64,000 nt of DNA. Source: a virus. Below the pieces are notes generated by a model. The model made no database searches. It was not told where the DNA came from and saw nothing but the letters and a program-made list of their open reading frames with translations. The stretch covers positions 32,001 through 96,000 of IMG/VR virus record IMGVR_UViG_3300038620_000126; one strand, given 5' to 3'. A program made the position numbers and the translations under genes. This document shows positions 13,001-32,480 of the stretch, piece after piece. The stretch's first letter is position 1, and the number at the start of each line of letters is the position of its first letter.

Positions 13001-14365
13001 TTAAACTATTACTCTACCTTCAACATCAGAAACAGCTTTAACATCTTCTTTTGTGAAATCTTTTTTATTTTCATCACAAATAAAATCACCCCCAACTTTT
13101 TCAGGAGCACCTTCAAGGGATGTTAAATTATTACCAAAACAATCAAAATCACCCCCAACTTTTTCAGGGGCACCTTTAAGAGATGTTAGACTATTACCAA
13201 GACAATTAAATTCACCCCCAACCTTTTTAGGTGCATCTTCAAGGGATGCTAAATTGTTATGGGAACAATCAAAATCACCCCCAACTTCTTCAGGTGCACC
13301 TTCAAGTGTTGTTAATTTATTACCAGAACAATCAAAATTACCACTAATATATTTAAGCCTGTAATTGTTTATAATTTTTTTATAATTTTTAGGGTTGAAC
13401 TTTAAATTTACATTACCTTTAATGTTAACTATATTTCCATCTATTTCAAATGTCCCATCAACAACATAATTTAATGTTTCTTTTGGGCTTGAAGAGAAGC
13501 TATTTATATCATAAGATTTAAATTTATCAATAACATCTTTCTTAAAAAATACGGCTTGTTCAGGTTCATTGGGATGAATAAACCAGTCTTCACCTTTATC
13601 AATAAAACCTTCAATATCCAAGTCCAAGTAAATTTTTGTTTTAAATTGTATACTTTTATCTTCTCGTAAAGCTAAATCAACATAGTTATTTACAAAAAAC
13701 CAAAGTGTTTCAACCGTTGGTTGATAATTTTTAGTATTACGCATTATAGTATGACTTAATTCATTCCATTTTGCTGAATATTTTCTGGAATATGTTAAAC
13801 TATTTAAATTAGTTTTCATTTTTTTAAAACTTTCTTTTCTTTCTGATTTATTATTTGATTTCATAGCTTTTATATAGTTAAACAATAAATCGAAAGCATC
13901 TTGTGGAAGATTATTTTTTAATTTCTTGTTAGACTTACAAATTTTGTAGAACTTTTCAATATGTTTAAGAACTTCAGAATCATGAGTTAAAATTTTACCT
14001 TTTTGAATTTTGTTTTCTTTAATTTTAAATAAGTGAATTACATTAGACATATTAGGAATAAAAGGATAAAATCGTTCTAATCTTTCTTTAATTTTTTCAT
14101 TAGGAGTACTATTTGTAAAACCTGCTGTTATCCTATTATAATCTTCTTTGTTAAAAGGGTAAGCATAATATCCAGCGGGTGTATTATAACCAGTAAAAGG
14201 ATTTATAAATGTTACAGTATTTTTCCGTCGAAATGAAATAAACCAATTATCTAAACTGTCATTTCCAATAGTATTTTTAATAAATTCAACAATGTTTATA
14301 TCTCTATTGACTTCAGGGTTTCTTCGCTTTTCCGTTAAGTAATTTTGAAAAGACTTTAAACGCAT
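13001..14365 (-). CDS. Capsid-tagged protein: putative ART-like domain + 22-aa leucine-rich repeats
   Basis: N-term MRLKSFQNYLTE; TPAGYYAYP and EGFID..IHPNEPEQAVFF; four FDCxxNxLTSLEGAPEKVGG repeats. Confidence 0.7.
   Translation of the reverse strand: MRLKSFQNYLTEKRRNPEVNRDINIVEFIKNTIGNDSLDNWFISFRRKNTVTFINPFTGYNTPAGYYAYPFNKEDYNRITAGFTNSTPNEKIKERLERFYPFIPNMSNVIHLFKIKENKIQKGKILTHDSEVLKHIEKFYKICKSNKKLKNNLPQDAFDLLFNYIKAMKSNNKSERKESFKKMKTNLNSLTYSRKYSAKWNELSHTIMRNTKNYQPTVETLWFFVNNYVDLALREDKSIQFKTKIYLDLDIEGFIDKGEDWFIHPNEPEQAVFFKKDVIDKFKSYDINSFSSSPKETLNYVVDGTFEIDGNIVNIKGNVNLKFNPKNYKKIINNYRLKYISGNFDCSGNKLTTLEGAPEEVGGDFDCSHNNLASLEDAPKKVGGEFNCLGNSLTSLKGAPEKVGGDFDCFGNNLTSLEGAPEKVGGDFICDENKKDFTKEDVKAVSDVEGRVIV
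13080..13340 (-). repeat. 66-bp tandem coding repeats (LRR units, about 4 copies)
   Basis: aaaatcacccccaactttttcagg(a/g)gcacctt... recurs at 66-nt spacing. Confidence 0.9.
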
Positions 14366-14377
14366 TTTTAATTTTTT

Positions 14378-14650
14378 TTATTTATTTAAGTTATATTCTT
14401 TTATTACATTTTTAGTATCATAGTTAACATTATTAAAAATCTTATTGTCATCTAAATCAAAAGCTTTAAGTTTTCCTTTTATATTATAACCGAATTGTTC
14501 TGAATGGGCATTTCTACCTGAACCCCCACGCCTCAAAAAAGTTAATTCTTTTTTATTGAGATTCATTTGTGATTTTAACCAATCAAGAAAAGGTTTATAA
14601 TCTGTTTTCTTTTTTGATTTTACATAATCTTTGAATTTTTCTAGTTCCAT
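14378..14650 (-). CDS. Small basic protein, possible degenerate capsid tag (MELEKFKDYVKS)
   Basis: 90-aa ORF between the two LRR paralogs. Confidence 0.65.
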   Translation of the reverse strand: MELEKFKDYVKSKKKTDYKPFLDWLKSQMNLNKKELTFLRRGGSGRNAHSEQFGYNIKGKLKAFDLDDNKIFNNVNYDTKNVIKEYNLNK

Positions 14651-14664
14651 TAAACTGATTTTTA

Positions 14665-16326
14665 TTAAGTGTCAATAAATCCACTAACATCTATAACATT
14701 TTTAATTTCTTCTACTGTAAATTCTTTTTTATTATCCATGATCATAAAACCACGGACCTTTTCGGGTGCGCCTTTAAGAGATGTTAAGTTATTATGAGAA
14801 CAATCAAACACCTTTTCAACTTCTTTGGGGGCACCTTCAAGAGATGTTAATTGATTATTAGAACAATCAAAACCTTTTCTGATATAATTAGGAGCACCTT
14901 CAAGTGTTTTTAATTTATTATCAGAACAATTATAGTCACCTCCAAAGTTAAATCCTTTTTGCTCAAATCCAACTTCCTTCGGCCCCCCCTTTAAACTTGT
15001 TAATTTATTATCAGAACATACAAAATTTCCAATAATTTTTTGGGGACAACTTTCTAAAGATTTTAGTTTATTATTAGTACAGTCAAGATCACCACCTATT
15101 TCATTTGGTAAACCTTTTAATGTTTTTAGATCATTAGATTTACATTTTACATTTGTCTTTACAGTTGAAATGCCTTCTAATGTTTTGAGTTCGTTTAAGT
15201 TACATACAAATTCACCATCAACTTTTTTGGGGCATCCTTCTAAAGATTTTAATTTATTATTAGAGCAGTCAAATTTTCTTCCTACATATTCAGGAATTCC
15301 AATTCTTAGAAGAGATGTAATACCGATTGCTTTACAAATAAAACTTCCAGTAACATTACCAAATTTATACTTTTCTGTAATTCTATAAAAATCTGCTTTA
15401 CTATTAAAAAATACATCTCCATCAACATTAATTACATTGTTTTCTTTTATTTCATATCTTCCACGTATTACTTTATTAAGTAAGTTGTTTATGTTACCCA
15501 CAAAATCTATTATGTCGTAGGAATAAAGATTTTCAATAACATCTCTAGTAAAAAATATAGCCTGTTCGGGTTCATTGGGATGAATAAACCAGTCTTCACC
15601 TCTATCAATAAAACCTTCAATACCTAAATCCAAATAAATTTTTGTTTTAAGCTGCGCTCCACCAGTTTTCACTAAGTCAACATAATTATTTATAAAAAAC
15701 CAAAGCATTGAAACCTTTTTCTGTTTTTTAATAACAAGTTTTAACTTACTCCACATTTGATCCATTTCATAATCATTTGGTTTTATATTTTCAATTAATT
15801 CACTGACTTTATTATAGTCTTTTTCTTGATTCACAACAACTTCTAACAAGTCAAAAGCAGCCTGCGGAAGGTTATCTTTTAATATTTTCTTTGTTTTACA
15901 AATTTTATAGAATTCTTTAATATGTTTAAAAGCTTTTGAATTTCTTGTTAATATTTTTCCACTTTTAACTTTTTCTTGTTTGATCTTGAATAGATGAATT
16001 ATGTTAGAACCCCTTGGAAAAAATGGGTAAATATCTTTTATTTTAGTTTTAACTGAACTGTTATCGCTACTTTCATCATATTTACTTAGTAATTCATTAT
16101 AGTCTTCTTTATTAAATGGATATGCATAATATCCAGCAGGAGTATTATATTCGGTAAAAGGGTTTACAAATGTTACAGTATCTTTTTGTCGAAATGAAAT
16201 AAACCAATTATCCAAACTATCATTTCCAATAGTATTTTTAATAAACTCAATTATGTTTATATCTCTATTAACTTCAGGGTTTCTTCGTTTTTCTGTTAAG
16301 TATTCATAAAAATTTAATAACTTCAT
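14665..16326 (-). CDS. Capsid-tagged ART-like + LRR protein, paralog of 13001-14365 with about 9 repeats
   Basis: MKLLNFYEYLTEKRRNPE; near-identical first ~75 aa to paralog; IHPNEPEQAIFF; longer LRR array. Confidence 0.7.
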   Translation of the reverse strand: MKLLNFYEYLTEKRRNPEVNRDINIIEFIKNTIGNDSLDNWFISFRQKDTVTFVNPFTEYNTPAGYYAYPFNKEDYNELLSKYDESSDNSSVKTKIKDIYPFFPRGSNIIHLFKIKQEKVKSGKILTRNSKAFKHIKEFYKICKTKKILKDNLPQAAFDLLEVVVNQEKDYNKVSELIENIKPNDYEMDQMWSKLKLVIKKQKKVSMLWFFINNYVDLVKTGGAQLKTKIYLDLGIEGFIDRGEDWFIHPNEPEQAIFFTRDVIENLYSYDIIDFVGNINNLLNKVIRGRYEIKENNVINVDGDVFFNSKADFYRITEKYKFGNVTGSFICKAIGITSLLRIGIPEYVGRKFDCSNNKLKSLEGCPKKVDGEFVCNLNELKTLEGISTVKTNVKCKSNDLKTLKGLPNEIGGDLDCTNNKLKSLESCPQKIIGNFVCSDNKLTSLKGGPKEVGFEQKGFNFGGDYNCSDNKLKTLEGAPNYIRKGFDCSNNQLTSLEGAPKEVEKVFDCSHNNLTSLKGAPEKVRGFMIMDNKKEFTVEEIKNVIDVSGFIDT

Positions 16327-18672: not shown

Positions 18673-18826
18673 ATTTTCATATGTTTTTGTATTTATTTAA
18701 CCTTTGACGTTAAAGATAATAAAAAGAAAAGTATTTTACAAAAGTTTAAAAATAAAAAACCCGTTCAACGATAAAGCTGAACGGGTTTTTAAGTTTAGTG
18801 ATGGTTAGATTAAAGGAAATCAACAC
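18673..18826. repeat. 154-bp direct repeat, copy 2 (native MCP 3' end)
   Basis: Matches 17923-18076. Confidence 0.92.
18754..18790 (-). terminator. Intrinsic terminator of major capsid gene
   Basis: aaaaacccgttca...tgaacgggttttt. Confidence 0.85.
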
Positions 18827-20630
18827 CACCAGCATCAGATGTTACGTCGAACGTAAGATAAGAAGTTTCTGGATACTTACCTGCCTCCGTGATAGCAGCG
18901 CGAGACTTAACTGCAATCTTTGGAGCCATAGTACCTTCAGCAATAGTGCTAATCGATTCTGCCATAAGGTATGGCATAAACTTAATTCCAGGTTCTTCAT
19001 CGCTTCCCTTACGCATAACGCAAACGCGAGAATCATTCCACTGCATGTTAGCATCACTATAAACAGTAACACCGAATACAGTACCATGAGGACTTACACT
19101 TGAGTTAGCTTGATCAAATGTATTTTGGAAGCTTGATGGCATGTAACCAGCAACATCTACCATACTCTGAGTTAAACGTCCACTCATAACAGCGCAATTA
19201 CCAGGTCCAATACGGTTGCGGTGATGCAAGAAACTTGCAACAGCACCAATGGTTCTTGGAATTCTCCGTTGAATGGTTTCTTGGTTTTCATACAAGGTTG
19301 TGGTACCAGTGAAACCCAAAGCGTTTGCAGGTTGACCTGCACTAGTTGGGAACGTTGCTAGTGTATTATCTTTACCCGGGTAGGTTGAATAAACACCATT
19401 ATTACCAATGTGTAAGTTGAAGTCCGATCCTTCAGTTTTGTAACTGTTAATATGGTTAGTCCAACCTAGTGCCATTGCGCGTCCAATCAGTGCTTTACTA
19501 AAGCTTTGAGTAAGCTCATTAACACAAGCACTTTCAGACATACCAACAGCATCAATACCCCAAATGGATTGATAGTCTTGGATTTGTTCAGTCTTCAATG
19601 GTAAAGCAATTTGGAAAGTTTCTGCTTCTACCAAACGGCTGAACATTTCCATGCCCAGTTCGCGATAATAGGTATTTTCACCAGTTTCGCGACTCATTGG
19701 GGAAGCATATGGACCTGCGTTAGCACCACTTGCATTACTGTTTGTGTATTGGCCAGCTTCAAAACCTTCAAAGTTAAGAGTAAAATCATCATTGTCTTGA
19801 GAACCAGCACCACTAAATCCGGGAATGTGGTTAGTAAGTGCAGTTGCCAGTTCTGCTCTAACGCCACCAAGCGCATTACTATCAGCAACAACACTACCAC
19901 CACTAGTCGGATCAAACAACCGATAACTTGTAGTGGTTCCCGTAAATACATCACTAATAGCCAAATTACCTGCGTTATTAGTGTATTGCACACGGAAAAT
20001 TGGATCAGGAGTAATACGATGCTTACCTAAGAAAGTCAAGGTCATAACTGTTTGGTTACTACCACTGCTTTCTTGAACTTCGTATTGCCGACCTTTAACC
20101 AAGCTATCAATAGTGCTTTGAGAAAGGTTATTGACAGCAATAACATAAGGAGCATTTTGTTTGCCCTGACCACGAATTTGACCACCAGCATAATTGTACT
20201 CTAGATAAGGCAACATAATTGCAGGCTTATCCATAGGGATAACAGGGAAAAGATCAAAAGCTGGTGTTTCAGCAGCAACCTGAATTGATACAGGAAGGGC
20301 AGCAGGGAAAACATCACCAGACCCCGTGTTACCACGATAAAACACATTTTGTGTAGAACCTTGTGGACCTGCAATTGAATTACCAGCACCATATTGTGCG
20401 GGGTTTGAAGGAGCTTGAACAGCACCAATACCATTAACATTACCCAAGGAAGCAGAAGTTTGACCAGCTTCGTTCAAAGGACCCATTGCACGTTTTGCAT
20501 GGTTATGGCAATATTGGTACAGCCACTGCCTACGGGATTCAGATAGTTGACTAGTATCAATGTTCATACTTTGCAACACTGGATCCCATGTTTCTTTTAG
20601 TTTTTGACTACTGAAGTCTTTAATAAACAT
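18810..20630 (-). CDS. gp23: Major capsid protein (T4 gp23-like)
   Basis: LKETWDPVL N-arm, LNE cleavage site, FPVIPMDKP, GIKFMPYL..TMAPKIAVKSR; follows prohead protease. Confidence 0.93.
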   Translation of the reverse strand: MFIKDFSSQKLKETWDPVLQSMNIDTSQLSESRRQWLYQYCHNHAKRAMGPLNEAGQTSASLGNVNGIGAVQAPSNPAQYGAGNSIAGPQGSTQNVFYRGNTGSGDVFPAALPVSIQVAAETPAFDLFPVIPMDKPAIMLPYLEYNYAGGQIRGQGKQNAPYVIAVNNLSQSTIDSLVKGRQYEVQESSGSNQTVMTLTFLGKHRITPDPIFRVQYTNNAGNLAISDVFTGTTTSYRLFDPTSGGSVVADSNALGGVRAELATALTNHIPGFSGAGSQDNDDFTLNFEGFEAGQYTNSNASGANAGPYASPMSRETGENTYYRELGMEMFSRLVEAETFQIALPLKTEQIQDYQSIWGIDAVGMSESACVNELTQSFSKALIGRAMALGWTNHINSYKTEGSDFNLHIGNNGVYSTYPGKDNTLATFPTSAGQPANALGFTGTTTLYENQETIQRRIPRTIGAVASFLHHRNRIGPGNCAVMSGRLTQSMVDVAGYMPSSFQNTFDQANSSVSPHGTVFGVTVYSDANMQWNDSRVCVMRKGSDEEPGIKFMPYLMAESISTIAEGTMAPKIAVKSRAAITEAGKYPETSYLTFDVTSDAGGVDFL

Positions 20631-20675: not shown

Positions 20676-22982
20676 TTAACGCGAACGGTACTTTAGATTT
20701 TCTTTTAATAGTTTGAGACCATCTTCATATCCCAATTCATTAGTGCTTTGCTCTTGTGCACTTTCATAAATACCGTTGTTACGACTTAGTCCTTGAAAGT
20801 TTTGCGATGATTTTGATTTTGTATCATTCACAATTGAATTAGACTTCCAGAACTTGTTAATTTTGTTTTGAGAATCGAAATTCCAAATTTTTGCCTGATT
20901 GTGAATTTGATTACGTTCACTCTCAGATAAGTTGTTCCAAACATTTACATATTGCTTGGGCATATTTTTTATGTAGCTTGGGGCATTTTGATCGCTTTCA
21001 TAAACCCTTCTACAAACTTCATAAATTTGATTTGGGTGATAAACTTGATTCTTAGCAATCTCATCTGAAACAATTTGCTTTTGTGCACTGGACAATCCAT
21101 AGAAAAACTGTTTCTGATTTTCTGAAAGCATTCTAACAAATGGATATAGTTCATCAACTGATTCTGAATAATGCCTTGAATAAGTTTGATTTGCTGCTTC
21201 TAATGCATTATCTACAGTTTCATCAATACTTTCAATTTCAATTGAATCACCCAATTGATAGTGTTCCGTAATACCAGATTCATTCAGTGATTCTGCTATT
21301 GTTTCCGTATAATTAATGCTACTTTCAACACTAGGTTGTATTACATCTTCCATGTAACTTCCAATTGCTTCAATATTTTCTTTTAGTTTATCTGAATAAT
21401 TAATGCTACCTTCTAGGTATGGCTTAATTTCATCTTGTGTATAATCAATCAAATCATTAGTTCTTTCTGCAATGAATTCTGAATAATCTCTATTGCCTTG
21501 AATATTTTCACGAAGTTCTTCAGTATAATCAACAATGTGGTTTACATGTTCTGCAATGTTTTCGCTATAATTAATAGCACTTTCAACATTGGGGCGAAGT
21601 TCACCGTCCATATATTCACGGTTGTTGTGTATACCTTCTCTTAATTCGTTTTGGGTATAATCAATAAGTTGATTGGTTGTTTGACCAATAGCTTCGGTAT
21701 AACTAACTAGTTTATTGAATTTATTTTCAAGTGTATCAAAAGCATTTTTTATCTGCTTCGAATAGGCATTAATTTCATTTTTCAACTCTTTTATAGAGTT
21801 GTCATTTTCGAAAGTGTTGTTTTCTGCATAACCTGCAACACTATCAATTTTATTTTCAATATCTTCAAACGCTTCATTAATTTTTCTACTATGTTCTTCC
21901 AAATAGTTTGAAATTTGTTCAATTTTGCGTTGTTGATATGAATTTTCTGGAACTTTAGAACGTAGGTTTTTAATTTCTTTTTCTACATTTCTAAAATTTT
22001 TGTTGTGGGCTTCTGCGAGCCTGTCAACTTTTTGCTTTAATTTGTTTGTGGTTTTTTCAGTTTCGTAACCCATTTCTTTTAGTTTATTTTTTGTTTTATT
22101 TATTTCATTTGTTTTATTTATTTCATAATTTAAATTTTCTTCTTCAGATTCATATTCTTCATCTTCAAAGTTTTCTGATTCAAAGTTTATACGATCTATC
22201 ATTCTTTGAACCCTATTAACTTGTGATTCATTTAATGTATAGATAATTTGATTTCCATAGTCAGAATCCAAACCAAAATCTTCATTTATAATGGTAAGGT
22301 CATCTGCATCATTTACAACACCCAATCTTGGTTCATAGTCAAAGCTTGAATAAAGTGAACTATAGTTTTTATTGTTCTTTTCAGCAAGTCTTTGAAGTTG
22401 ATTATCAAGTGTTTTATAATATTCTCTATATTTTTGGCGGAGTTCTTCTCCCTCTTGAACTTGAGAAAGTTGAGCGCCCGAAAAACCGGGAACTGATACT
22501 AAATCATACGTAAAAATCTTTTTAATTTTTACTTTTTTATCATTTCCAACTTGACCTGCTGCTCTCGATGATATGTATAGCGGAACACCAGCATCAACTA
22601 AGTTTCTAGCCTGCTCCCCGTATATAGTGGGGAGTAAGCGAATTCTACCTTCAATTGTATTATTTTTCTTATTATACCAAACATTTTCAACTTTATGAGA
22701 TGCATTTTGAAGTGAAATATCAAAACCTTCTGGGTGATCCATTTCACCCAACAAAGCATTCTTTTTAGCCCTTTCTTGAAGTTGCCCTAACTGGTTTAAG
22801 TATTCCTGTTTTTCATAAATTCGATTATTATCGTTTTCTTTATCAAGTTCTGCAAAAGTACCTTCTAAAATGTAGTCTTTTGTCTTTTTATTTTCATTGT
22901 TACCTTCATTTACAAGCTCAATGTTAGAACTACTTTTTTCCAGTAAAAAAATCCATTGGTTATCATTTGTCTTATTAGACAT
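20676..22982 (-). CDS. gp21: Prohead protease (gp21-like) fused to long scaffold/core domain
   Basis: NDNNRIY, LLGEMDHP, ISSRAAG, TYDLVSVPGF; C-terminal repeated NxLIDYTxxE helices with many L/I-x-E sites. Confidence 0.9.
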   Translation of the reverse strand: MSNKTNDNQWIFLLEKSSSNIELVNEGNNENKKTKDYILEGTFAELDKENDNNRIYEKQEYLNQLGQLQERAKKNALLGEMDHPEGFDISLQNASHKVENVWYNKKNNTIEGRIRLLPTIYGEQARNLVDAGVPLYISSRAAGQVGNDKKVKIKKIFTYDLVSVPGFSGAQLSQVQEGEELRQKYREYYKTLDNQLQRLAEKNNKNYSSLYSSFDYEPRLGVVNDADDLTIINEDFGLDSDYGNQIIYTLNESQVNRVQRMIDRINFESENFEDEEYESEEENLNYEINKTNEINKTKNKLKEMGYETEKTTNKLKQKVDRLAEAHNKNFRNVEKEIKNLRSKVPENSYQQRKIEQISNYLEEHSRKINEAFEDIENKIDSVAGYAENNTFENDNSIKELKNEINAYSKQIKNAFDTLENKFNKLVSYTEAIGQTTNQLIDYTQNELREGIHNNREYMDGELRPNVESAINYSENIAEHVNHIVDYTEELRENIQGNRDYSEFIAERTNDLIDYTQDEIKPYLEGSINYSDKLKENIEAIGSYMEDVIQPSVESSINYTETIAESLNESGITEHYQLGDSIEIESIDETVDNALEAANQTYSRHYSESVDELYPFVRMLSENQKQFFYGLSSAQKQIVSDEIAKNQVYHPNQIYEVCRRVYESDQNAPSYIKNMPKQYVNVWNNLSESERNQIHNQAKIWNFDSQNKINKFWKSNSIVNDTKSKSSQNFQGLSRNNGIYESAQEQSTNELGYEDGLKLLKENLKYRSR

Positions 22983-26837: not shown

Positions 26838-28742
26838 TCAATTTCCCATCTTTCCAAAAAGCCCACCGTTTTCGCGAACATAGTTTCCAATCTTTTCTAT
26901 TTCGCCTCGGTGGGTTCTTTTATATTGCTCAGAAGTTTCTGCACCTTCAATTATACCATTGTGAATGGATTCAATATAATTTGAAGGTGTTTGACTGTAA
27001 TCCCGCTTTTCAATTCCATCGCCCCTGTCTTCAAATTCACCACGACTGGGGTTTGCTTGTTCACCAGCAAATTTTTCACTTGGTAATGTTCTATAAAGTT
27101 TACCAGTTCCTCGGTTAAACATAGATTGAATTTCGGCGCCATCTCGTGGTCTTCCATGTGCAAGTTCAACTTGTACACTCATTGATGTTGGAAAATCTTC
27201 AGCCCCCAAATCATCTGAAAATTGAAATATAGCCTGTTCACAAATTAAGTTACCAATCATCATAATTGGATTCATTGGATTTCCAACAACTAAATGCCAA
27301 TTACCAACTGGATTACCAGATATTAGTGATGGTAAAATAATAGCGTCTGGACGAGACTTTGCACTTTCCATATCAAGAAACATTTTAAGCCCACCACCAA
27401 TCATGCTTTTAATTTTATTCATGGTTTCTTTGGGGTCTGAAGACGGATCAAACATTGCTTGAAGATCCGTTTGTATAGAATCCGCAATATTTGAAACATC
27501 AGAACTTAAGGTTCTAAAGTATTCTTGATAATCACCAGCATAAAAACTTGACCAATCACCAAGAAATGGAACTTGTGGAACATCAGGAAAAAATCTTACA
27601 TCACCACCCCACCAAGGTGCATAATCATAACACAAAGCCAACATATTAGCAAGAACATCAAGCATTCCAACTTTTGGACTGATATTACCTCCTGCTGTAA
27701 GATCAAATTGAAAATTAATTTTTAAATTTTGTTGTTCAAATTCAAGACCTTTTTGCCGCTTTTTTGTGTTTTTAATAACATTTACGGGGCCATAAACAGC
27801 ATTAGGATGGGTTTTTTCGTATGCATCTTTACCATAAATTTGTTGAGCCTTTTTTGATCTTTGTGCAAGATCGCCCGAACCAGATGCTTGTCCAGAATAA
27901 AATGCAGTAACAGTTCTCAATGCACCTGAATTCGAAACAGAACCTGGCAGATCCGAAAAACCCGGAATTTTACCATCCTCTTCCCATACGTCTGATTCAA
28001 TATCCTCCCAATTGTACTTAGTTGAAAATTGCATTATTTCACTCAACTTATTTTCAGTCTCTTCACCAAAATAAGTTACAGCTTTTGCAACAGGAGGCAT
28101 ATATTTAACACCTTGAATTTCTGCATTTTTGTTAGTTACTGTAACAGGGCCTAAAGCATCTGTTGTTGGGTAAAGAAATCTTCTTAGTGTTATTAATCGG
28201 TTGTTTGGTATTTCGCCAAAATATCTTGCATAAACAAAATCTTTAGGTTGATAAGCAAATATTGGCCCAACCTTATCACCAAGATTATCAGAGCTAAAAT
28301 AGTTTAATATATTTTTTAGTGTTGGTTCAACATATTCTGGTTTTTGTATATCATTACCAGCTTCTTCTGAAGTATTATTGGGGTTTAGAAAGAAGTCATT
28401 AATTGAATGATAAGCATTTTTATCTTTTGCAAGACTAAAAATAGCAAAGTTGTTCATCATTGCTTTGCCACCCTTTACAACTACTCTGCCTTTTGCACCA
28501 GAACCCGAAACTTGATTCTTTACATCATCAAGACTATTAATTTGAATTATTTTATAAACTTCACTTGAACCGTATTGTTCATATGCTCCCTCGAACACTT
28601 CTTCGGGTATAATTCGTGGATTGACTTCATTTTGAAGGTCTTCATAACTATCAACATTTAATGCATCCCCATTAACACCCGGAAATACTACAGGCTCAAA
28701 CGAACTATTGCTTTCTCGTGCTTGGCTAAGTGATCCCTGCAT
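26838..28742 (-). CDS. Conserved virion structural protein (baseplate hub/tube-initiator-like)
   Basis: Late promoter; IPNNRLITLRRF, WHLVVGNPMNPIMMIGNLIC, FPTSMSVQVEL tube-like strand. Confidence 0.55.
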   Translation of the reverse strand: MQGSLSQARESNSSFEPVVFPGVNGDALNVDSYEDLQNEVNPRIIPEEVFEGAYEQYGSSEVYKIIQINSLDDVKNQVSGSGAKGRVVVKGGKAMMNNFAIFSLAKDKNAYHSINDFFLNPNNTSEEAGNDIQKPEYVEPTLKNILNYFSSDNLGDKVGPIFAYQPKDFVYARYFGEIPNNRLITLRRFLYPTTDALGPVTVTNKNAEIQGVKYMPPVAKAVTYFGEETENKLSEIMQFSTKYNWEDIESDVWEEDGKIPGFSDLPGSVSNSGALRTVTAFYSGQASGSGDLAQRSKKAQQIYGKDAYEKTHPNAVYGPVNVIKNTKKRQKGLEFEQQNLKINFQFDLTAGGNISPKVGMLDVLANMLALCYDYAPWWGGDVRFFPDVPQVPFLGDWSSFYAGDYQEYFRTLSSDVSNIADSIQTDLQAMFDPSSDPKETMNKIKSMIGGGLKMFLDMESAKSRPDAIILPSLISGNPVGNWHLVVGNPMNPIMMIGNLICEQAIFQFSDDLGAEDFPTSMSVQVELAHGRPRDGAEIQSMFNRGTGKLYRTLPSEKFAGEQANPSRGEFEDRGDGIEKRDYSQTPSNYIESIHNGIIEGAETSEQYKRTHRGEIEKIGNYVRENGGLFGKMGN

Positions 28743-30739: not shown

Positions 30740-31618
30740 TTACTTATCTTCTGGATAATCAAAGTCATCCAAATCAACATCATAATCCCAATACTTAACC
30801 TTATCAAACTTTTCTTTATCTCTTAATAATGTTCTAAACGATTGTGGAGCATACTTTTTTTGAAAAAATCTACACCACTCATCATGTGGATTACAAAAAG
30901 CACTTGCTTCATCTACTTCTTCTGAAAAGGTTACTTTTTGTGGTTGATAGCGCGTTGAAATTTTGAATTCTGCAAAACCAGCAGGGGTTACATGTACATC
31001 TTCATTTGTGTGTTCAACCTTTTTCATGTACTTGCTGATTTTATCAATAAGGAATGGTTCTTCATCTGTTCTGCTTTCAAACCCTATCATATAAACACTT
31101 AGTTGGCGAACTTTTTTAAGACTTTTTATATAAATAATATGATCTTCAAATGGTTTTATAACATTATAAATTTTTTCTGGAAGTTTATCTTTTGGGTTCT
31201 TAACTTTTACTAAATATTCATTAAGTGTTTCTGGTACATAACCCTCACCAAGTACATGTTCATAATCTTCATAATTATCTTCTTCATCTTCGTCGTCATA
31301 CATTTTATCATTATATCCAAGGGGTGTGAGTATATCACCACTTCCAGTTTGTCCAGTATAAAAATCACCAGATGGTGCTTGAACTGGCCCCATACCACCT
31401 ACATTTGAAAGTGTTGCTTCATATTCACTAAGTTTCTTAGGCAGACCTTTTCTATCGGTTTCTGCATATTCTCTAGCTGTATCCATAGATACACCATCTG
31501 CTATATTTTTAACTTTTTTAGCTAAGCTATCACTTAATTCATCAAGATCCAATTCTCCTTGTTTATAAGCATATACCATTCCAAATAATCTTTGTTGTTC
31601 TTTACTCTTTGCTGGCAT
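30740..31618 (-). CDS. DUF3008-like N-terminus + capsid N-arm-like peptide; putative head protein
   Basis: MPAKSKEQQRLFGM...GLPKK; ATLSNVGGMGPVQAPS..FYTGQTGSGDI. Confidence 0.7.
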   Translation of the reverse strand: MPAKSKEQQRLFGMVYAYKQGELDLDELSDSLAKKVKNIADGVSMDTAREYAETDRKGLPKKLSEYEATLSNVGGMGPVQAPSGDFYTGQTGSGDILTPLGYNDKMYDDEDEEDNYEDYEHVLGEGYVPETLNEYLVKVKNPKDKLPEKIYNVIKPFEDHIIYIKSLKKVRQLSVYMIGFESRTDEEPFLIDKISKYMKKVEHTNEDVHVTPAGFAEFKISTRYQPQKVTFSEEVDEASAFCNPHDEWCRFFQKKYAPQSFRTLLRDKEKFDKVKYWDYDVDLDDFDYPEDK

Positions 31619-31631
31619 TAATTACTTTTTT

Positions 31632-32480
31632 TTATTTATTATTTTTATTTGATGACAAGTTATTTTCATCTAATTTTGAACTACCTAAATCTCTAGGCTT
31701 ATCATTATACAATCTATCTTTATATAGGGGATATGGAGTTTCTGCAACTTCTGGATCAACAAAAATTCTTGGTTTAATACCATCTTGCATTCTATGGCCA
31801 GAGTGTCTAGATTCTGTTGGATCAAAAGATGGTATATAAGATTCTACTTCAAAATTAATCTCCATACTGATTTCATCTTCTATTGGATAACTAAACTCAG
31901 AACGGGTTTCTCTACTAAAGTCTTCTTGAAGCCCCATTTGAACAGGGATATTCATGTTTTCAAAATTTATGTAAAACTCTTGAACTTTATAATAATTTCT
32001 GTAAATCATTTCAAAAAGTTTAAAAACTTCAATATCTGTATTTGACTTTATAGTAAGTGTAAATTGCAAATCAACTGGTAAAATTTTAACATAACTCATA
32101 TAAGTTTCAAGTTTATATCCTTCATCTTGTTCAATTTCTATAGGTACATTAGCACGAGCATATTCATTTGTCAATTTTTCGGAACTTATAGATAAACTGT
32201 TTAATGACAATATGCCACGTGGAAGAGCATCAATATTTCCTTCAACTTTTTTTGCCATATCTTTATCGCAATAATGCATTTTGTAAAGATTGAAGTTGTT
32301 TCTAAGCCAGTTTTCATCTTTTGAAATAGAATAAAAAATAGGAACATTAACTTCAACTTCTTTATCTTTCCAAACCTGATAATAAGACATGCGCTGCATG
32401 AGTTCAGCAAGCATTCCCACTATTATACTTCTAACAAATATATCGTCGGAGTTATGTCGCGATAGGTAAGGGTTTGGCAT
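31632..32480 (-). CDS. Tail terminator / sheath stabilizer (gp15-like)
   Basis: VNVPIFY, LPRGIL, LPVDLQFTLTI, INFEVESYIP. Confidence 0.75.
   Translation of the reverse strand: MPNPYLSRHNSDDIFVRSIIVGMLAELMQRMSYYQVWKDKEVEVNVPIFYSISKDENWLRNNFNLYKMHYCDKDMAKKVEGNIDALPRGILSLNSLSISSEKLTNEYARANVPIEIEQDEGYKLETYMSYVKILPVDLQFTLTIKSNTDIEVFKLFEMIYRNYYKVQEFYINFENMNIPVQMGLQEDFSRETRSEFSYPIEDEISMEINFEVESYIPSFDPTESRHSGHRMQDGIKPRIFVDPEVAETPYPLYKDRLYNDKPRDLGSSKLDENNLSSNKNNK

Follow-up and report, generated by a model that had tools for sequence, protein, structure and literature searches.

The 64-kb stretch of viral DNA analysed here (hereafter the window) is part of a 110-kb, AT-rich fragment of an uncultured phage, which carries a T4-type head module and whose completeness was estimated by CheckV at 41%. 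On the minus strand of the window we find a major capsid protein (MCP) of the T4 gp23 family (18810-20630; PF07068, E = 3.6e-12; phrog_28442, E = 2e-58), a prohead protease of the S77, T4 gp21 type fused to a helical scaffold region (20676-22982; PF03420, E = 5e-9; phrog_207, E = 4e-38), which is presumed to be the enzyme doing the processing discussed below, and a gp15-like neck protein (31632-32480). At least four genes adjoining the protease start with a T4-like capsid-targeting tag. Tag-like N-termini are also seen in further minus-strand genes at 13001-14365, 14378-14650 and 14665-16326, two of them with leucine-rich repeat C-terminal parts. Huge uncultured phages are the GenBank neighbours closest to the window MCP, LR756500.1 (462 kb) sharing 34% identity, and the identity with Lak megaphages and with genomes of 630-735 kb is 28-29%. 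A search of the 110-kb contig for the gp23/gp24 family (PF07068) returned the MCP gene as its sole match, and no truncated MCP paralogue (a likely penton protein, see below) was found in the fragment.

The gene of interest (30740-31618, minus strand; P0001) starts 13 bp past the gp15-like neck gene, and a T4-late-promoter-like AATAAATA box lies ~20 nt ahead of its start codon (31619-31650, minus strand), overlapping the gp15-like stop. Judging from its sequence, the encoded 292-aa protein is made of three putative modules: a DUF3008 leader, an MCP maturation site followed by a copy of the MCP fist and arm, and an orphan domain of ~150 residues joined through an acidic linker; a match to the HK97-fold body of capsid proteins is missing from it. 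The N-terminal DUF3008 domain (residues 3-62; 31433-31612) is a three-helix module recognised by Pfam, PHROG, homologues and AF2, with pLDDT values of 96-98 at residues 11-50. It covers positions 1-56 of the 57-position PF11450 model, scores 21.8 bits (E = 2e-4) in hmmscan, just below the cut-off of 24, and 25.2 bits, above that cut-off, in the genome search, and it also matches phrog_10538 (E = 3e-8) and is backed by homologues of 62-65% identity. The N-terminal tag pattern of the four neighbouring genes is absent from the protein, whose N-terminus is a canonical DUF3008 start. The tripeptide L63-S64-E65 (31424-31432) that follows this part is a candidate prohead-protease site, placed relative to the copy as L-N-E54 is in the MCP, and we infer that the protease may cut there. 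Residues 66-97 (31328-31423) form the N-fist/N-arm copy, detected by BLASTP, shuffling and profile search and predicted by AF2 to be disordered (pLDDT ~30). A strongly acidic linker is evident in the sequence at residues 104-121 (31256-31309), followed by a short amphipathic motif (residues 128-140; 31199-31237) that contains L-N-E134 and that, on sequence comparison, resembles the capsid-targeting tags of the window and the C-terminal helix of the small arm-copy proteins described below, being too short for statistics. The remainder is the orphan C-terminal domain (residues 141-292; 30743-31198), for which AF2 gives a low-confidence fold. Other protease-type sites, LGE, LNE and FSE, do occur as first reported, at residues 123-125, 132-134 and 231-233.

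Homologues of the 292-aa protein share 47-65% identity with its DUF3008 part only, their C-termini being unrelated; full-length homologues were looked for and none was found. Residues 60-292 have no homologue among 1.84 billion representatives, and a word-based search with residues 60-105 as query returned the self-match only. For the C-terminal domain, a PDB sequence search, a BFVD fold search and the protein atlas yielded nothing usable, and its AF2 model is poor.

The initial annotation had noticed in this ORF, at 31331-31420 (residues 67-96 of the product), a peptide matching the mature N-arm of the MCP, and both peptide and coordinates proved correct. BLASTP aligns residues 65-97 with MCP residues 57-108 over 33 positions (19 identities, 32.3 bits, E = 2e-5) with a single gap of 19 residues, which coincides with a variable insert of the MCP. 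The similarity also withstood shuffling of the 46-residue local segment alone with its Gly/Ser-rich composition retained, as none of 5000 shuffles reached the Smith-Waterman score of 73 (26.1±4.8 in the shuffles; z = 9.8; Gumbel p = 2e-6), and a profile of the segment (A3) finds the copy with 56.6 bits (E = 3.5e-16). As was also observed at the outset, an L-x-E tripeptide precedes both segments, L63-S64-E65 in the 292-aa protein and L52-N53-E54 in the MCP.

The original of the copy spans MCP residues 55-110 (20301-20468, minus strand), directly behind the L-N-E54 maturation site. A profile search against solved structures, taken with the T4 sequence, places it in gp23 from about the cut site to residue ~97, a stretch that takes in the N-fist (66-91) and the first part of the N-arm (PMC7136217 for the gp23 N-fist). 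The N-terminal motif (GMG … GSGD) is visible in 120 MCP homologues, and residues N53, E54, G67, G69, V71, G103-S104-G105-D106, F108 and P109 are invariant across 16 diverse MCPs, the conserved blocks G-M/I-G and G-S-G-D being present in remoter MCPs as well (PAU, MA9V-2, LR7565xx); no part of the MCP N-region is better conserved than the copied motif. Within the unexpanded T4 head, the N-region of gp23 is internal and disordered and probably contacts the scaffolding core (PMC9546572), and upon head expansion it moves to the outer surface to become the N-fist and arm, binding four subunits (PMC9546572, PMC9958956). Mutations altering T4 head length (A66D, A94V, G97S) fall in the same gp23 N-region (PMC9546572). 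The N-fist is disordered in the five portal-facing subunits, and the vertex protein has none (PMC9958956, PMC7136217). When the 110-kb genome was searched with the profile, a partial third match to the second block of the motif (F-Y-x-G … G-S-G-D; E = 7.8e-4) came up at 27870-27902 (minus strand), within a 634-aa ORF (26838-28742, minus strand); it may be due to chance. The product of that ORF belongs to the core genes kept across the phage group and is annotated throughout as hypothetical.

Arm copies outside the capsid gene are a recurrent trait of related phages, which bears out the conservation of the motif in homologous settings: there are 21 of them in 19 related huge-phage genomes, Lak and phages above 600 kb included, and in each of the six relatives with a completeness of at least 90% the MCP is accompanied by exactly one further copy, carried by an ORF of 149-167 aa. 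A profile search of 20 long relatives found 13 non-MCP copies, of which 11 sit in small ORFs of this kind and the other two are fused to DUF3008. LR745206 and LR756502 each encode two copies, and LR756501, LR756504 and Lak-A1 a single one. A hydrophobic-x-E site is situated 8-25 residues upstream in 20 of the 21 copies, and several of the proteins begin with a T4-type capsid-targeting tag immediately ahead of the copy. The small proteins of 149-167 aa belong to no Pfam or PHROG family and share a layout of modestly folded N-domain, disordered arm, Lys-rich stretch and terminal helix. Within this family conservation peaks in the arm copy, which holds most of the invariant columns, and hhalign links the family to the MCP family with a probability of 98.2% (E = 3.5e-14). 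No copy was detected in PAU and MA9V-2, whose MCPs carry the same motif, so the function would be dispensable in some relatives.

An equivalent arrangement is found in T4 itself. The product of gene 61.1 (54 aa; phrog_1823), annotated as hypothetical, opens with a targeting tag, continues with a stretch copied from gp23 residues ~58-96 and ends in a Lys/Glu tail (E = 1.4e-5 against gp23 in a T4-wide search; z = 12). The window protein shares with this gp61.1-like class the similarity to the own MCP, the upstream hydrophobic-x-Glu site and the best match to the own MCP, and departs from its usual size and layout (~50-180 aa, a tag or small N-domain and a Lys-rich tail), being with its 292 aa an atypical, fused form. 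Profiles phrog_1823 and phrog_2086 failed to match the 292-aa protein, whole or as residues 60-140, at E values up to 1 (the gp61.1 control gave 3e-33), because each protein matches its own MCP. In the literature searched, gp61.1 appeared in genome descriptions only, with no functional study found, and the term DUF3008 did not occur.

The match to the own capsid gene goes beyond general resemblance. The window copy scores 73 against its own MCP and at most 50-55 against any other, and when copies were compared with 12 lineage-representative MCP arms, the own arm was the top match for 10 of 14 (binomial p = 1e-8), the arm of a sister lineage scoring best for the other four. Lineage-specific wordings are common to MCP and copy in Lak and LR756500.1, and in Lak the G-M-G block is replaced in both. 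In this regard, codons are informative about how the match is kept. Copy and MCP of the window use the same codon at 8 of their 19 identical residues, with 8.9 expected from codon usage, which rejects a recent duplication or gene conversion in the window phage, and in the window, LR756500.1, G007, G009 (both relatives) and Lak alike the sharing of codons at identical residues is not above the codon-usage expectation. Synonymous sites have thus been randomised, so that in these phages the match is old and has been maintained at the protein level. A different situation is met in LR756502.1 (L162 versus L155), where one copy and the MCP share the codon at 22 of 27 identical residues, along with a lineage-specific insert, a pattern that indicates recent gene conversion between capsid gene and copy; in LR745206, the sister of LR756502, that insert is present only in the copy. 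Recombination can therefore keep copies matched besides selection. Altogether, the copy is homologous to the MCP segment, is kept at the protein level and belongs to a class of the T4 superfamily that recurs and is matched to the own MCP.

A second association concerns the DUF3008 domain. In LR756500.1, a 127-aa DUF3008 protein copies its own, differently worded MCP arm (E = 4.5e-7), and the IMG/VR relative G009 provides a third fusion, so that the combination is known in three lineages, that of the window included. Moreover, each of the ten main-clade genomes has one DUF3008 gene and, 1-16 kb downstream of it on that strand, the copy gene; these fusions together with the ten-out-of-ten linkage tie DUF3008 and arm copy functionally. 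The arm copy as a general trait of DUF3008 proteins was considered and rejected, since it is absent from 21 homologues and from the cyanophage protein, and hhalign gave no significant sign of a degenerate copy in the DUF3008 tails of the main clade (E = 0.23 with the MCP family, 0.037 with the small-protein family). Among homologues of the DUF3008 part (P0005, P0008, P0010, P0011), the domain is joined to many unrelated C-terminal modules, DUF5661 included, the module borders carry tag-like amphipathic motifs ending in Glu, and in roughly half of all homologues the domain closes with a hydrophobic-x-E site. To judge by these sequences, the architecture looks like a cleavable leader or polyprotein design.

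Other detached or reduced versions of the MCP were encountered in the relatives. A truncated paralogue of ~300 aa, found in G007 (L142:785-1690, plus strand) and also in G001, G002, G004, LR756500.1 and MA9V-2, keeps the HK97 core and is devoid of propeptide, N-fist, N-arm and insertion domain, from which it is a likely penton protein. The possibility that the copy serves such a truncated penton as an N-fist in trans was discarded on account of imperfect co-occurrence, MA9V-2 having the paralogue without a copy and the window contig a copy without the paralogue. ORFs of 114-116 aa in G007 (L143:643-987, plus strand) and G004 (L144:416-766, plus strand) copy the next MCP segment, from past G-S-G-D to the first strand, and similarity to the MCP propeptide is seen in ORFs of LR745206 and LR756500.1; several pieces of the MCP N-region are thus free-standing in these phages. 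The MCP gene of Lak-A1 (MK250016.1, 46859-48763) contains a single in-frame TAG, which fits the stop-codon reassignment reported for Lak phages.

The initial annotation had interpreted the match as capsid-arm mimicry by a processed polyprotein that docks in the shell lattice, for example at vertices or the portal. The mimicry has gained ground, in that the similarity is specific for the segment behind the maturation site, is preceded by hydrophobic-x-Glu in nearly all copies and tracks the own MCP; polyprotein cleavage and docking at lattice, vertex or portal stay putative. The explanation that we prefer, with confidence and doubt evenly balanced, is that the gene encodes a late, head-associated, prohead-resident protein whose trimmed copy presents an MCP-like N-terminus to the partner of the MCP arm. 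The 292-aa protein would enter the prohead and be cut after E65 by the S77 protease, as the MCP is after E54, and the new N-terminus would imitate that of the mature MCP and occupy a site made for the MCP arm. This site would most likely be the contact of the MCP N-region with scaffold core or inner shell in the unexpanded head or, alternatively, the N-fist pocket of the expanded shell, and docking would tether the C-terminal domain to the head. As the gp23 N-region of T4 is internal and probably in contact with the core, docking in the lattice is no more likely than docking on the scaffold side. The genomic context is favourable, with an S77 protease, a gp23-type MCP and tagged cargo genes in the window and the gene itself behind a gp15-like gene with a late-promoter-like box, but the 292-aa protein is twice the size of most members of the class and has neither their N-terminal tag nor their basic tail.

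A transient assembly regulator, unlikely in our view, would also use the copy inside the prohead, where it would compete with the MCP N-region for scaffold, protease or chaperone, tuning nucleation, head size or maturation timing without being retained. The T4 head-length mutations cited above fall in the same, probably core-contacting segment (PMC9546572), small cleaved peptides generally exit T4 proheads (PMC9546572, PMC9958956), with which a transient role fits better than an anchored one, and the copies are predicted to be disordered when alone. Huge capsids need tight size control, and in the relatives the next MCP segment and the propeptide also exist as free copies. However, such a regulator leaves the fused 150-aa C-terminal domain, the basic tails and the targeting tags of the others unexplained, and copy number shows no link with genome or capsid size.

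The docking in the outer lattice originally put forward, by which a peptide would fill, after expansion, arm-less N-fist pockets beside pentons or portal to staple or decorate them, has somewhat poorer prospects. It can draw on the T4 head, where the N-fist touches four subunits, is disordered in the five that face the portal and is missing from the vertex protein (PMC9958956, PMC7136217), and on the likely penton paralogue of the relatives, which has neither N-fist nor arm. On the other hand, a free peptide made within the prohead would need to pass through the shell, MA9V-2 encodes the truncated paralogue and no detectable copy, the 110-kb fragment is devoid of a penton paralogue, and the Lys-rich tails and internal-protein-type tags of most copies point to the interior.

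It is very improbable that the copies have no function and arose as a by-product when the MCP gene recombined, or underwent gene conversion, with other late genes. The conversion signature of LR756502 (22/27 shared codons) is what such a process would leave, and the protein context of the copy does vary among lineages, but T4 and every complete relative have a copy, conservation within the small proteins is highest in it, and in the window, LR756500.1, G007, G009 and Lak the invariant MCP residues are kept while the synonymous sites are randomised.

Harder still to credit is a decoy role against host defence, in which a peptide resembling the MCP, perhaps injected together with the DNA, would block or saturate capsid-sensing host immunity. 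Host systems that sense MCPs are known (Lit with the Gol peptide of gp23, CapRel), but the Gol region of gp23 presumably sits downstream of the copied segment, an MCP-like peptide would be likelier to trigger a sensor than to block it, and no result of the analysis points to an anti-defence role; in favour, internal proteins of T4 that are loaded by the same tag act as anti-restriction factors (PMC3012670). Finally, a chance resemblance of two short, Gly/Ser-rich, low-complexity stretches that need a 19-residue gap to align has virtually no probability left, as it is refuted by the composition-preserving shuffles and the matching to the own MCP, and 19 other genomes, as well as T4, show this relation independently.

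A more speculative explanation may be added, which we hold as less likely than not. The fist/arm copy would be a portable docking code of the T4 superfamily, used from gp61.1 to Lak and phages above 600 kb as a second means, alongside the capsid targeting sequence, of bringing proteins to the shell-core interface, with DUF3008 as a cleavable leader; in the window phage it would anchor a novel 150-aa domain, cargo or structural, to the capsid, and the match between copy and MCP would record a co-evolving interface of peptide and pocket. In any case, the sequence data point to the arm-copy proteins as an unstudied kind of head protein with a putative role. T4-type head assembly is a textbook system, yet free-standing copies of the MCP fist and arm have no assigned role. 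In T4, this segment governs contact with the core, the length of the head and the bonding between capsomers. Their maintenance from T4 to the largest known phages, matched to the own MCP and fusable to other domains, suggests an unrecognised element of assembly or cargo anchoring, which, if it were a docking tag, could serve to load proteins into phage heads.

Several known systems share features with the window protein. In T4, the internal proteins IPI-III and Alt are head cargo loaded into the prohead core through a capsid targeting sequence, with gp21-type trimming at L/I-x-E (Mullaney & Black 1996, as cited in PMC9958956). At least four genes tagged in this way adjoin the protease of the window, but the T4 proteins carry a tag and no MCP-arm copy, whereas the 292-aa protein carries an MCP-arm copy and no N-terminal tag. 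The N-fist/N-arm of T4 gp23* (66-91 onwards) is the counterpart of the copied segment, which is predicted to be disordered alone as the former is in the unexpanded T4 head (PMC9546572); in the window protein, the segment is detached from the HK97-fold body and set in another protein. The T4 vertex protein gp24 is likewise a second MCP-derived gene, with the whole fold and no N-fist, while here ~33 residues of the N-region and nothing more have been copied. The DUF3008 (PF11450) protein of cyanophage S-ShM2 (gene 108) has the same N-terminal domain and the same position after a gp15-type neck gene (beside gp15/gp16), but no copy of its own gp23 arm, and its C-terminal part is unrelated. Closer are the small arm-copy proteins of 149-167 aa, which belong to the same MCP clade, copy the same segment behind a hydrophobic-x-E site and are linked to a DUF3008 gene; they differ in a Cys-containing N-domain, a Lys-rich stretch (which most copy proteins of the relatives have where the window protein has its acidic linker) and a C-terminal amphipathic helix, and are free of a DUF3008 fusion or a large C-terminal domain. 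T4 gp61.1 is also a free-standing copy of the cut site and N-fist of its own MCP behind a hydrophobic-x-E site. This protein is tiny, has an N-terminal tag and is encoded beside the primase gene, in contrast to the DUF3008 leader, acidic linker, additional 150-aa domain and neck-gene neighbourhood of the window protein, and gene 61.1 offers a tractable case for direct testing.
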